A stretch of 37,730 nucleotides of DNA from NCBI RefSeq assembly GCF_003334785.1, contig NZ_QOWV01000026.1; one strand, given 5' to 3'. The position numbers and the translations under genes were made by a program. This document shows positions 5,014 through 9,817 of the stretch, piece by piece. The stretch is from Escherichia coli (GTDB lineage Bacteria; Pseudomonadota; Gammaproteobacteria; Enterobacterales; Enterobacteriaceae). Under the pieces are notes generated by a model, which saw nothing but the letters and a program-made list of their open reading frames with translations, was not told where the DNA came from and ran no database searches. Position 1 is the stretch's first letter; each line of letters starts with the position of its first letter.

Positions 5014-7413
5014 ATGAAGCTAACCGATGCGGATAATGCCGCCGATGGCATTTTTTTCCCCGCCCTTGAGCAAAATATGATGGGTGCGGTGTTAATTAAC
5101 GAAAATGATGAAGTGATGTTTTTCAACCCCGCCGCAGAGAAGCTCTGGGGATACAAACGTGAAGAAGTCATTGGCAATAACATTGATATGCTGATTCCGC
5201 GGGATTTGCGTCCTGCGCATCCTGAATACATTCGTCACAACCGTGAAGGCGGTAAAGCGCGTGTTGAGGGGATGAGTCGGGAGCTGCAGCTGGAGAAAAA
5301 AGACGGCAGTAAAATCTGGACCCGTTTTGCGCTATCGAAAGTGAGCGCCGAGGGGAAAGTTTATTACCTGGCGCTGGTACGGGATGCCAGCGTAGAAATG
5401 GCGCAAAAAGAACAGACCCGACAATTGATTATTGCCGTTGACCATCTCGACCGACCGGTGATTGTCCTCGATCCGGAACGCCATATTGTGCAGTGCAATC
5501 GCGCATTTACCGAAATGTTTGGTTACTGCATTAGCGAAGCCAGCGGTATGCAGCCCGATACACTCCTGAACATTCCTGAATTCCCTGCCGATAACCGCAT
5601 TCGTTTACAACAGTTGCTATGGAAAACCGCCCGCGATCAGGACGAATTTCTGCTGTTGACGCGCACCGGTGAAAAAATCTGGATTAAAGCCTCTATCAGC
5701 CCGGTTTATGACGTGCTCGCGCATCTGCAGAACCTGGTAATGACTTTCTCGGATATCACCGAAGAACGGCAGATTCGCCAGCTTGAAGGCAATATTCTCG
5801 CCGCCATGTGCAGCAGCCCGCCATTTCATGAAATGGGGGAAATCATTTGTCGTAACATCGAATCTGTACTCAACGAATCGCATGTTTCGCTGTTCGCACT
5901 GCGCAACGGGATGCCGATACACTGGGCGTCATCTTCCCACGGTGCAGAAATTCAAAATGCGCAAAGCTGGTCAGCGACCATTCGTCAGCGTGATGGCGCG
6001 CCTGCGGGGATCCTGCAAATTAAAACCTCGTCAGGAGCAGAAACCAGCGCCTTTATCGAACGCGTGGCAGATATCAGCCAGCATATGGCCGCGCTGGCGC
6101 TGGAACAGGAAAAAAGCCGTCAGCATATTGAACAACTCATCCAATTTGATCCGATGACCGGTCTGCCAAATCGCAATAACCTGCACAATTACCTCGATGA
6201 CCTGGTCGACAAAGCCGTCTCTCCCGTGGTGTATCTCATCGGTGTTGACCATATTCAGGATGTGATTGATAGCCTTGGCTATGCGTGGGCCGATCAGGCA
6301 TTGCTGGAAGTGGTCAATCGCTTTCGTGAAAAACTCAAACCGGATCAGTATCTCTGTCGTATCGAAGGTACGCAGTTTGTCCTCGTGAGCCTCGAAAACG
6401 ACGTCAGTAACATTACCCAAATCGCCGATGAGCTACGGAATGTGGTCAGCAAGCCGATAATGATTGACGATAAACCCTTCCCGCTTACCTTGAGTATTGG
6501 CATCAGCTACGACCTGGGTAAAAACCGCGATTACTTGCTCTCCACTGCTCACAATGCAATGGATTATATTCGCAAGAATGGCGGTAACGGCTGGCAGTTC
6601 TTCAGCCCGGCGATGAACGAAATGGTAAAAGAGCGTTTGGTTTTAGGCGCAGCGCTGAAAGAAGCGATTAGCAATAACCAACTGAAACTGGTTTACCAGC
6701 CGCAAATCTTCGCAGAAACGGGTGAACTGTACGGCATCGAAGCCCTTGCTCGCTGGCACGATCCCCTGCATGGTCATGTGCCCCCTTCACGGTTTATTCC
6801 TCTCGCAGAAGAGATTGGTGAAATCGAAAATATTGGGCGCTGGGTCATCGCGGAAGCTTGCCGTCAGTTAGCAGAATGGCGTAGCCAGAATATTCATATC
6901 CCGGCGTTATCCGTGAACTTGTCGGCGCTGCACTTTCGCAGTAATCAACTGCCTAATCAGGTGTCTGATGCAATGCACGCCTGGGGTATTGACGGCCACC
7001 AGCTGACGGTAGAAATCACGGAAAGCATGATGATGGAACACGATACCGAAATCTTTAAGCGCATTCAGATCCTGCGTGATATGGGCGTGGGCTTATCGGT
7101 AGATGATTTTGGTACGGGCTTTTCCGGATTATCCCGCTTAGTCAGTCTTCCGGTAACGGAAATCAAAATTGACAAAAGTTTTGTCGATCGTTGTCTGACC
7201 GAAAAACGCATCCTTGCCTTACTTGAAGCCATTACCAGCATTGGGCAAAGCCTCAATTTAACCGTCGTGGCGGAAGGCGTCGAAACCAAAGAGCAATTTG
7301 AGATGCTACGCAAGATCCACTGTCGCGTTATTCAGGGATATTTCTTTTCCCGCCCCCTACCCGCCGAAGAAATTCCAGGCTGGATGAGCAGCGTGTTACC
7401 GCTGAAAATCTGA
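5014..7413 (+). CDS. dosP: heme-PAS c-di-GMP phosphodiesterase (EAL domain), oxygen sensor
   Basis: Track ORF 4990-7413 (807 aa); I place the start at the internal ATG (MKLTDADNAADGIFF, 799 aa) preceded by a GAGG-like RBS; EAL motif YGIEALARW present; PAS region in N-terminus. Confidence 0.9.
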   Translation: MKLTDADNAADGIFFPALEQNMMGAVLINENDEVMFFNPAAEKLWGYKREEVIGNNIDMLIPRDLRPAHPEYIRHNREGGKARVEGMSRELQLEKKDGSKIWTRFALSKVSAEGKVYYLALVRDASVEMAQKEQTRQLIIAVDHLDRPVIVLDPERHIVQCNRAFTEMFGYCISEASGMQPDTLLNIPEFPADNRIRLQQLLWKTARDQDEFLLLTRTGEKIWIKASISPVYDVLAHLQNLVMTFSDITEERQIRQLEGNILAAMCSSPPFHEMGEIICRNIESVLNESHVSLFALRNGMPIHWASSSHGAEIQNAQSWSATIRQRDGAPAGILQIKTSSGAETSAFIERVADISQHMAALALEQEKSRQHIEQLIQFDPMTGLPNRNNLHNYLDDLVDKAVSPVVYLIGVDHIQDVIDSLGYAWADQALLEVVNRFREKLKPDQYLCRIEGTQFVLVSLENDVSNITQIADELRNVVSKPIMIDDKPFPLTLSIGISYDLGKNRDYLLSTAHNAMDYIRKNGGNGWQFFSPAMNEMVKERLVLGAALKEAISNNQLKLVYQPQIFAETGELYGIEALARWHDPLHGHVPPSRFIPLAEEIGEIENIGRWVIAEACRQLAEWRSQNIHIPALSVNLSALHFRSNQLPNQVSDAMHAWGIDGHQLTVEITESMMMEHDTEIFKRIQILRDMGVGLSVDDFGTGFSGLSRLVSLPVTEIKIDKSFVDRCLTEKRILALLEAITSIGQSLNLTVVAEGVETKEQFEMLRKIHCRVIQGYFFSRPLPAEEIPGWMSSVLPLKI

Positions 7414-7425
7414 CAAATTCCTCTC

Positions 7426-7446
7426 GCCCGCACTCGCGGGTTTTCA
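7426..7446 (+). terminator. short GC stem plus T-run after dosP (weak intrinsic terminator)
   Basis: cccgc / actc / gcggg followed by ttttcattt. Confidence 0.35.
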
Positions 7447-7522
7447 TTTAACGTGACACTGTCACTTAAATACTGTGATTTCAGCTACGATTCCGGGAGA
7501 TTCCTTCCTTAACTTCCCCTCT

Positions 7523-7548
7523 TGCACCAAAACTGCACTACGCTGCAC
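7523..7548 (+). promoter_or_regulatory. three direct TGCAC repeats upstream of the ddpX sigma-54 promoter (possible NtrC-type enhancer half-sites)
   Basis: TGCACCAAAACTGCACTACGCTGCAC; the first repeat matches the NtrC half-site TGCACCA; no good dyad, so uncertain. Confidence 0.3.
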
Positions 7549-7610
7549 AAATGTTGATCAAAAGTTAAAAAATATAACTTTAAGCCAGCATTCTGGCGCT
7601 TATCCCGGCA

Positions 7611-7626
7611 TGGCATGAGATCTGCA
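7611..7626 (+). promoter_or_regulatory. candidate sigma-54 (-24/-12) promoter for ddpXABCDF
   Basis: TGGCATGAGATCTGCA: GG and GC elements with the canonical 12-bp register (consensus TGGCACG-N4-TTGCA), about 45 bp upstream of the ddpX ATG; AT-rich IHF-like spacer between it and the TGCAC repeats. Confidence 0.5.
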
Positions 7627-7670
7627 TAAGCGGAAAGCGCAGCAATTTTTGTCTTATACAGGAACCGTTT

Positions 7671-8252
7671 ATGTCGGATACCACCGAACTGGTTGATTTA
7701 GCCGTAATCTTCCCTGATCTGGAGATCGAATTGAAATACGCCTGCGCTGATAACATCACAGGTAAAGCTATTTATCAGCAAGCGCGTTGTCTGTTACACA
7801 AGGATGCGATTACCGCGCTGGCGAAAAGTATCAGCATCGCCCAGCTGTCAGGGTTACAACTGGTGATTTACGATGCGTATCGCCCACAACAAGCACAGGC
7901 GATGTTGTGGCAAGCCTGCCCAGACCCGCAATATGTTGTTGATGTGACGGTCGGTTCTAATCACAGCCGTGGCACGGCGATCGACCTGACGCTTCGTGAT
8001 GAGCACGGGAACATCCTCGATATGGGCGCAGGGTTCGATGAAATGCACGAGCGCTCCCATGCCTATCACCCTTCCGTCCCGCCCGCCGCTCAGCGCAATC
8101 GGCTGTTGCTGAATGCGATAATGACTGGTGGCGGTTTTGTCGGTATCTCCAGCGAATGGTGGCACTTCGAATTACCCCAGGCAGCGAGTTACCCTCTGCT
8201 CGCTGATCAATTCTCTTGTTTTATATCCCCTGGCACACAGCACGTCAGTTAA
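7671..8252 (+). CDS. ddpX: D-Ala-D-Ala dipeptidase (VanX homolog)
   Basis: 193-aa ORF; zinc-peptidase motif SNHSRGTAIDL present; first gene of ddp operon. Confidence 0.94.
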   Translation: MSDTTELVDLAVIFPDLEIELKYACADNITGKAIYQQARCLLHKDAITALAKSISIAQLSGLQLVIYDAYRPQQAQAMLWQACPDPQYVVDVTVGSNHSRGTAIDLTLRDEHGNILDMGAGFDEMHERSHAYHPSVPPAAQRNRLLLNAIMTGGGFVGISSEWWHFELPQAASYPLLADQFSCFISPGTQHVS

Positions 8253-8265
8253 TCAGGAAACTGTC

Positions 8266-9816
8266 ATGAAGAGATCGATATCGTTTCGTCCCACATTGCT
8301 CGCGCTCGTCCTTGCCACAAATTTCCCGGTTGCGCACGCCGCCGTACCAAAAGATATGCTGGTGATTGGTAAGGCCGCCGATCCACAAACCCTCGACCCG
8401 GCGGTAACAATAGATAATAACGACTGGACAGTGACCTACCCGTCTTATCAGCGGCTGGTTCAGTACAAAACGGACGGTGATAAAGGCTCAACCGACGTTG
8501 AAGGCGATCTGGCAAGTAGCTGGAAAGCGTCTGACGATCAAAAAGAGTGGACGTTCACCCTGAAAGATAATGCTAAATTTGCCGATGGCACACCTGTCAC
8601 TGCCGAAGCAGTAAAACTTTCTTTTGAGCGGCTACTAAAAATCGGCCAGGGGCCAGCAGAAGCATTTCCCAAAGATTTAAAGATTGATGCTCCCGACGAA
8701 CATACGGTGAAGTTTACCCTTAGCCAACCATTCGCACCGTTCCTCTACACGCTGGCGAATGACGGTGCATCCATTATCAATCCGGCGGTCTTAAAGGAAC
8801 ATGCAGCGGATGATGCTCGCGGCTTCCTCGCGCAAAATACCGCCGGTTCCGGACCATTTATGCTGAAAAGCTGGCAAAAAGGTCAGCAATTAGTTCTGGT
8901 GCCAAATCCGCATTACCCAGGCAATAAACCGAACTTCAAACGGGTATCGGTAAAAATTATTGGTGAAAGTGCCTCCCGTCGCCTGCAGCTCTCCCGTGGC
9001 GACATTGACATTGCCGATGCGCTGCCGGTGGATCAACTCAACGCCCTGAAGCAGGAAAATAAAGTCAATGTGGCAGAGTATCCGTCACTGCGCGTTACCT
9101 ATCTGTATCTGAATAACAGCAAAGCGCCTCTTAATCAGGCGGATCTGCGTCGGGCCATTTCCTGGTCTACCGATTATCAGGGCATGGTTAACGGCATTCT
9201 GAGTGGTAACGGAAAACAGATGCGCGGCCCGATTCCGGAAGGCATGTGGGGCTACGATGCGACGGCAATGCAATACAACCATGACGAAACGAAAGCCAAA
9301 GCCGAATGGGATAAAGTGACGAGCAAACCCACCAGCCTGACGTTTCTCTACTCCGATAACGATCCGAACTGGGAGCCTATTGCTCTGGCGACACAATCCA
9401 GTCTCAACAAGCTGGGCATCATTGTGAAGCTGGAAAAGCTGGCGAACGCCACCATGCGCGACAGAGTGGGTAAAGGTGATTACGACATTGCGATTGGCAA
9501 CTGGAGTCCGGATTTTGCCGACCCGTATATGTTTATGAATTACTGGTTTGAGTCAGACAAAAAAGGTCTGCCGGGTAACCGCTCGTTCTATGAAAACAGT
9601 GAGGTCGATAAGTTACTGCGCAATGCGCTTGCGACCACCGACCAGACGCAGCGTACCCGGGACTACCAGCAGGCACAGAAAATCGTCATTGATGACGCTG
9701 CTTATGTGTACCTGTTCCAGAAAAACTACCAACTGGCGATGAACAAAGAGGTGAAAGGCTTTGTGTTCAATCCCATGCTGGAACAGGTCTTCAATATCAA
9801 TACCATGAGTAAATAA
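8266..9816 (+). CDS. ddpA: periplasmic D-Ala-D-Ala dipeptide-binding protein (ABC transporter substrate-binding protein)
   Basis: Track ORF 8128-9816; start placed at internal ATG giving signal peptide MKRSISFRPTLLALVLATNFPVAHA (516 aa); family 5 solute-binding protein. Confidence 0.92.
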   Translation: MKRSISFRPTLLALVLATNFPVAHAAVPKDMLVIGKAADPQTLDPAVTIDNNDWTVTYPSYQRLVQYKTDGDKGSTDVEGDLASSWKASDDQKEWTFTLKDNAKFADGTPVTAEAVKLSFERLLKIGQGPAEAFPKDLKIDAPDEHTVKFTLSQPFAPFLYTLANDGASIINPAVLKEHAADDARGFLAQNTAGSGPFMLKSWQKGQQLVLVPNPHYPGNKPNFKRVSVKIIGESASRRLQLSRGDIDIADALPVDQLNALKQENKVNVAEYPSLRVTYLYLNNSKAPLNQADLRRAISWSTDYQGMVNGILSGNGKQMRGPIPEGMWGYDATAMQYNHDETKAKAEWDKVTSKPTSLTFLYSDNDPNWEPIALATQSSLNKLGIIVKLEKLANATMRDRVGKGDYDIAIGNWSPDFADPYMFMNYWFESDKKGLPGNRSFYENSEVDKLLRNALATTDQTQRTRDYQQAQKIVIDDAAYVYLFQKNYQLAMNKEVKGFVFNPMLEQVFNINTMSK

Positions 9817-9817
9817 C

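Follow-up and report, generated by a model that had tools for sequence, protein, structure and literature searches.

A conserved sigma-54 promoter core with two putative weak NtrC boxes at the head of the Escherichia coli ddpXABCDF operon

Results

Gene layout of the dosP-ddpX region

The window analysed here, a stretch of 37,730 nt of E. coli DNA (contig NZ_QOWV01000026.1), contains the dosP-ddpX region, the full neighbourhood being gadBC-digH-dosCP-ddpXABCDF-osmC. Positions 7400-7680 are 100% identical to K-12 MG1655, and therefore the published K-12 experiments apply to this sequence without adjustment. Furthermore, the 501 bases around the feature under study were matched in 5,392 of 5,426 complete E. 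coli genomes, where they are annotated as flanked by dosP (upstream) and ddpX (downstream).

The first gene of the ddpXABCDF operon, ddpX (7671-8252, + strand), encodes D-alanyl-D-alanine dipeptidase, as identified from its open reading frame (ORF), from the RefSeq annotation and from NCBIfam, in which the product scored 334.7 bits against model NF007557 (cutoff 176). A Shine-Dalgarno sequence, AGGA, can be read directly at 7660-7663 (+), 7 nt 5′ of the ddpX ATG. The ABC transporter genes ddpABCDF follow on the same strand (8266-13635, from the annotation of the identical region) and share the promoter of ddpX.

On the upstream side, a terminator scan located the intrinsic terminator of dosP at 7426-7449 (+), where GCCCGC-ACTC-GCGGGT is followed by a T-run. 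Its hairpin, of 6 bp and -10.9 kcal/mol, parts dosCP from the ddp promoter; the terminator is modest, and some read-through from dosCP may take place. Just 3′ of the terminator, at 7453-7465, lies a perfect 13-bp palindrome, GTGACACTGTCAC, which is kept in the three Escherichia sequences examined and also in strains lacking ddp. No structured RNA was recognized in 7350-7750 by Rfam (E-values up to 1).

A sigma-54 promoter core upstream of ddpX

Sequence, matrix score and published sites together define a sigma-54 core, ATGGCATGAGATCTGCA, at 7610-7626 (+), which is intergenic, on the sense strand and 3′ of the dosP terminator. It consists of TGGCAT (7611-7616), GAGAT as the N5 and CTGCA (7622-7626), with the -24 GG at 7612-7613 and the -12 GC at 7624-7625. 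The doublets are at canonical sigma-54 spacing, exactly as the initial annotation had described, and the distance of about 45 bp that it gave to ddpX was measured as 44 nt from the end of the core to the ATG at 7671. The strict pattern TGGCAY-N5-YTGCW was found twice in the window, with 0.26 occurrences expected.

Scoring with a sigma-54 matrix, which had been proposed as a check on the promoter, was performed using a weight matrix derived from 41 other ChIP-validated intergenic-sense sites (Bonocora et al. 2015). The ddpX core scored 15.9 bits and equals the median of these validated sites (8.7 to 21.6 bits, median 15.8), ranking second in the window. Random sequence of the size of the window is expected to hold 0.34 sites scoring equally well or better; judged by matrix score against random sequence, the motif alone is thus only suggestive. 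When matches are restricted to the sense strand and to the 100 nt or so preceding a gene start, the expectation drops to roughly 0.01-0.02 (arithmetic from the matrix result).

By the -24/-12 convention, transcription is predicted to start at 7637 (+/-1; + strand) and to produce a 34-nt leader, in agreement with the 'distance 34' given for ddpX in Table 1 of Bonocora et al. No experimentally mapped ddpX 5′ end was found in the accessible literature, and a simple scan of 7300-7750 found no sigma-70-type promoter.

Elsewhere in the window, the best matrix match was CTGGCACTACCGTTGCA at 32727-32743 (+; 16.9 bits). It falls within an ORF of 514 aa and corresponds to IS19, an intragenic site in narY already reported by sigma-54 ChIP-seq (FAT 2). 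Further matches at 21027-21043 (-; 14.0 bits) and 19062-19078 (-; 13.8 bits) are absent from the main-text tables of the sigma-54 ChIP-seq paper and are probably chance.

Published evidence for the same sequence

Binding of the relevant factors to this exact sequence has been documented. In sigma-54 ChIP-seq, the core is site OS16 (FAT 10), with ddpX 34 nt downstream (Bonocora et al. 2015), and an array-based study listed ggcaTGGCATGAGATCTGCATAagcg as the predicted promoter of b1488, whose expression went up on sigma-54 overproduction and down in a sigma-54 deletion (Zhao et al. 2010). The dos-ddpX spacer was recovered by gSELEX with RpoN holoenzyme; moreover, in EMSA the ddpX probe, the primers of which map to window 7340-7747, was shifted by NtrC, by RpoN holoenzyme and by both together as a ternary complex (Shimada et al. 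2021). An NtrC ChIP-seq peak at ddpXABCDF was reported in nitrogen-starved cells (Brown et al. 2014). The enhancer-dependent promoter layout that had been proposed is therefore correct, being backed by published EMSA and by ChIP-seq of both sigma-54 and NtrC.

Expression data point the same way and support the proposal that D-Ala-D-Ala scavenging is under nitrogen control. By RT-qPCR, ddpX mRNA was 104.5-fold up on nitrogen depletion, ddpF mRNA was up as well, and the authors concluded that activation of ddpX requires RpoN and NtrC (Shimada et al. 2021); in the accessible part of the supplement to that study, ddpX appears in primer tables only and no NtrC box is listed for it. Induction of the ddp operon has been reported within 110 s of ammonia shortage. 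As cited by later papers, the founding report is that of Zimmer et al. (2000).

Regarding other inputs, the sole site reported by RpoD gSELEX is internal, at ddpA/ddpB, with none in the dosP-ddpX spacer. Stationary-phase induction, which the initial annotation had mentioned, agrees with the finding of ddpXA among the top 100 RpoS-dependent genes of strain EDL933 (wild-type/rpoS ratios of 39 and 31 in stationary phase). In addition, ddpX was reported as down-regulated in a cya mutant.

Two candidate NtrC boxes and an AT-rich spacer

Three TGCAC repeats had been noted about 75-100 bp upstream of the core. They are indeed present on the + strand, at 7523, 7534 and 7544, but are closer to the core than described, at 67-88 nt upstream of TGGCAT. 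Three same-strand TGCAC within 26 nt are expected 0.011 times per window.

Compared with the NtrC consensus TGCACCA-N3-TGGTGCA (positions below being relative to the predicted start at 7637), the repeats appear to be better interpreted as a pair of weak NtrC boxes, each of 17 bp, in which repeats 1 and 3 would be the left half-sites and repeat 2 probably falls within the decayed right half of the first box. Candidate box A, TGCACCAAAACTGCACT (7523-7539, +; centre about -106), was recognized by consensus match and spacing and holds repeats 1 and 2; its left half, TGCACCA, is the exact consensus and its right half is degenerate, giving 5 consensus mismatches in 14. Candidate box B, TGCACAAATGTTGATCA (7544-7560, +; centre about -85), was recognized by its dyad and its conservation, with repeat 3 as the left half-site, 2 dyad mismatches in 10 and 4 consensus mismatches in 14. 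The two boxes are 21 bp apart, centre to centre. Their dyad measure in E. coli was matched by only 3.5% of shuffles and is weak taken alone.

As a control, nine bona fide K-12 Ntr promoters were subjected to the same box scan, which picked up the classic sites of glnAp2, at -140 and -108. With 4 and 5 mismatches of 14, the ddpX boxes fell among the weaker sites, in the range of glnK, rutA and yhdW. No footprint placing NtrC on the bases of box A or box B was found in the accessible literature. The published NtrC ChIP-seq interval at ddpX, of 80 bp, lies over the promoter rather than over the boxes; it is not informative on the position of the enhancer, because the interval at glnA shows the same offset (downstream of the sigma-54 promoter and before the estimated start codon) despite the known upstream location of the glnA boxes.

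The enhancer and the promoter are connected by an AT-rich spacer (7549-7590, defined by composition), with 76% A+T against 50% in the window and with A-tracts at 7560-7563 and 7567-7572. Such A-tract DNA could provide intrinsic curvature without IHF. Intrinsic curvature is known to replace IHF at sigma-54 promoters.

Conservation across Enterobacterales

For comparison, 80 species loci encoding DdpX relatives across Enterobacterales were fetched. A sigma-54 site of at least 12 bits was present at the head of the ddpX operon (sense strand, within 1,200 nt upstream) in 72 of them, whereas 0.037 such sites are expected per stretch of this kind from the background rate in the rest of these loci. 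The GG and GC doublets were found in 71 of the 72 best operon-head sites; in the exception, locus L027, the best match is an alternative site and the canonical one is located 46 nt downstream. Where ORFs were examined, the site lies about 45-60 nt from the first gene of the operon.

Alignment of the upstream regions revealed two conserved blocks. Escherichia, Citrobacter and most Enterobacter loci share the same box B 17-mer; at its position, a perfect TGCAC-N7-GTGCA dyad is found in Raoultella and two further Enterobacteriaceae, and a dyad with one mismatch in Serratia, Pluralibacter and Huaxiibacter. The left half of box A, TGCACCA, is perfect in many genera. Furthermore, the 21-bp spacing between the boxes recurs in Citrobacter, Enterobacter, Mixta, Brenneria and Lonsdalea, and is about 31 bp in Pantoea. 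In a set of 25 representatives, the best dyad 5′ of the sigma-54 site averaged 1.8 mismatches, whereas shuffles gave 3.5.

Box B is closer to the core in Escherichia than in Citrobacter and Enterobacter, by 11 bp or one helical turn: counted from the start of the 17-mer, box B is at -66 in the former and at -77 in the latter (window 7561-7609 compared with loci L005 and L016). This whole-turn phasing between box B and the promoter was limited to the difference between Escherichia and Citrobacter/Enterobacter, the other genera being out of phase.

An additional regulator gene in related operons and polymorphism of the ddp cassette

In 65 loci, the promoter is separated from ddpX by an extra gene. 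The Enterobacter cloacae copy encodes an RpiR-family protein of 284 aa, for which the closest model is SapR (400 bits, the cutoff being 500). An operator-like palindrome, TTGTTA-N6-TAACA, is present directly 3′ of the -12 element in at least 57 of these 65 loci; in L016, for example, the regulator gene occupies 2134-2988 and the palindrome 2078-2094, over the predicted start. Its position over the start suggests an autoregulated, ligand-responsive repressor that would be layered on nitrogen control. A second repeat, TGACAG...TAAC, was seen downstream of the palindrome. Among the 5,426 complete E. coli genomes, none was found to contain DNA resembling the regulator gene of Citrobacter.

The promoter region was found in 4,275 of the 5,426 complete E. 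coli genomes, with an identity of 99% or more in 4,071 records. About 21% of the complete genomes are without the whole ddp cassette, and in these dosP is followed by osmC. In the one ddp-less strain that was examined, the sequence is homologous to the window up to 7492 and again from 13647 onwards; therefore the whole cassette is gone, NtrC boxes and promoter included, and 65 nt of unrelated filler stand in its place. Since the Citrobacter homology extends to the left of 7492, the absence of ddp looks like a deletion.

With a 131-nt query, two natural variants of the promoter region were also encountered. In NZ_CM183653.1 the query spans 160 nt in two pieces, which suggests an insertion or duplication of about 29 nt, and in NZ_CM176323.1 only query bases 37-131 match, next to dosC, which suggests a rearrangement that removed box A.

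Whether the E. coli ddp promoter is the pruned remnant of an ancestral promoter with two inputs is, in our judgement, evenly balanced. By this account Escherichia may have lost the regulator gene and the palindrome precisely, the spacer between enhancer and promoter becoming one helical turn shorter; the operon may thus have been left under nitrogen control alone, and about a fifth of E. coli may then have lost the cassette.

Alternative explanations

That the sigma-54 motif is a chance match, or a site of non-productive binding with no role at ddp, gains some ground from the 0.34 sites of equal score expected per random window of this size and from the many sigma-54 ChIP sites that lie inside genes and have no known function, such as the one in narY (32727-32743). 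However, the position and orientation are right for a promoter, the strong induction on nitrogen depletion was credited by its authors to RpoN and NtrC, and an operon-head site was found in 72 of 80 loci against 0.037 expected, and this explanation is effectively refuted. A related proposal concerns the enhancer, where TGCAC repeats 1 and 2 could form a second, weak sigma-54 site, CTTGCACCAAAACTGCA (7521-7537), instead of or besides an NtrC box. With 12.9 bits this is the fifth best match in the window; validated sites with TGC for GGC exist at potF and ygfT (potF having TGCAC for GGCAC), and a second site may relate to the multiple holoenzyme bands in EMSA. Yet the GG doublet is missing, ChIP-seq called one motif here, and the -12 GC is not kept, being CTGAA in Citrobacter youngae and GTGAA in Enterobacter, while the TGCACCA half-site that is kept fits an NtrC box better. 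Given this unconserved -12 GC, the match at 7521-7537 was considered incidental, and a functional second site is very improbable.

The spacer had been described as AT-rich and IHF-like; its A+T content bears out the former, but the latter label found no support. Binding and bending by IHF, as at glnHp2 or nifH, would accord with the composition and location of the spacer, with a GTTAA four nt 3′ of box B that is kept in several genera, and with an enhancer so close (-85 and -106) that a bend would aid looping, as is generally understood for sigma-54 promoters. On the other hand, the IHF core WATCAANNNNTTR had no match with one or no mismatch in 7540-7612, the best being GATCAAAAGTTAA at 7556 with 2 mismatches; the literature search found no paper tying IHF to ddpX regulation, and the two A-tracts could curve the DNA on their own. 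Lacking a core match at this threshold, an IHF site in the spacer was rejected as unsupported, and we consider IHF action here unlikely. The RpoS and cAMP dependence of ddpX raises the further possibility of a second starvation promoter embedded in the enhancer, which would use a sigma-S-type -10, CTACGCT, between the NtrC boxes (7538-7544) and a CRP-like box, TGTGATTTCAGCTACG (7474-7489), about 70 nt 5′ of its start; in that case the TGCAC region would be shared by two promoters. Consistent with this are the high wild-type/rpoS ratios of ddpXA in stationary phase and the decrease of ddpX in the cya mutant, the CTAYRCT match at 7538, the CRP-like match at 7474, which is the best in the spacer (3 mismatches of 10), and the retention of TGTGA and of the ACTACGCT linker in Citrobacter and Enterobacter. 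However, the window has 12 occurrences of CTAYRCT, which does not exceed chance, and the CRP match is poor and at chance level. Moreover, the sigma-70-type scan was empty and RpoD gSELEX gave no site in the spacer, conservation among close genera spans the whole block without singling out these bases, and the RpoS effect could be indirect or reflect read-through past the dosP terminator. An embedded sigma-S promoter is thus improbable. As to the CRP-like box itself, its TGTGA is also kept in Huaxiibacter and Franconibacter, and the box is situated at the left edge of the ddp deletion.

Discussion

The feature upstream of ddpX is, with high confidence, an NtrC-activated and sigma-54-dependent promoter of the E. 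coli ddpXABCDF operon, ddpXp, and as such is already known: it is the published nitrogen-starvation promoter of an operon for uptake and cleavage of D-Ala-D-Ala. Occupancy by sigma-54 and NtrC, as well as induction on nitrogen depletion that was credited to RpoN and NtrC by the authors, has been shown in the literature for this exact sequence. The quality of the core motif, its conservation and the geometry of the boxes are shown here.

The following course of events can be proposed. Sigma-54 RNA polymerase would sit on 7610-7626 as a closed complex in any growth condition. On nitrogen limitation, phosphorylated NtrC would assemble on the weak boxes at 7523-7539 and 7544-7560, on one face of the helix, the contacted bases being those predicted from the consensus. 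It would then reach the polymerase by looping over the AT-rich A-tract spacer, for which we infer a bend, and use ATP for promoter opening. Transcription from near 7637, the predicted start, would yield the D-Ala-D-Ala dipeptidase together with its ABC importer. The dependence of ddpX on RpoS and cAMP is not explained by this NtrC/sigma-54 mechanism.

By means of this promoter, recycling of the cell-wall dipeptide D-Ala-D-Ala is coupled to the nitrogen-starvation response, a link that has been in the literature since 2000 and was confirmed several times later. What is added here is a sharper anatomy, in which the three repeats are probably two weak NtrC boxes and the spacer is without an IHF motif, as well as the conservation of the promoter across Enterobacterales and the lack of a linked regulator gene in E. 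coli. The observations on the lost regulator and on cassette polymorphism, which were not found in the accessible literature, are modest additions.

Among characterized promoters, glnAp2 of E. coli resembles ddpXp in its -24/-12 core, in two upstream NtrC boxes on one face of the helix and in activation by nitrogen limitation. However, the boxes of glnAp2 are close to the consensus (1-2 mismatches of 14), 32 bp apart and further upstream (-140 and -108), whereas those of ddpX are weak (4-5 mismatches), 21 bp apart and closer (-106 and -85). The promoter of rutABCDEFG, also a scavenging operon, likewise combines a sigma-54 core with two weak dyad boxes 21 bp apart (-142 and -121), but these rutA boxes are about 36 bp further out and have better outer dyads, with 1 mismatch of 10 each. 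Closely spaced NtrC boxes, at around -108 to -134, are also found at glnHp2, where a protein-induced bend forms between enhancer and promoter; the ddpX spacer, unlike that of glnHp2, has no acceptable IHF core and consists of A-tract DNA only.

With respect to its physiology, ddpXA is similar to astCADBE, which is also a top RpoS-dependent gene, has RpoN and NtrC as known regulators and is induced both by nitrogen limitation and in stationary phase. The NtrC boxes of astC, unlike those of ddpX, are at about -233 and -253. For astC, a separate sigma-S promoter has been defined and there is ArgR input; no defined sigma-S promoter for ddpX was found in the accessible literature. Also close are the orthologous ddp-type operons of Citrobacter, Enterobacter, Serratia, Pantoea, Raoultella and other genera, which share with E. 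coli the sigma-54 core, box B, often box A, and the gene order ddpX-ddpA-ddpB. They differ in harbouring an extra RpiR/SapR-like first gene and the TTGTTA-N6-TAACA palindrome, both of which are absent from E. coli.
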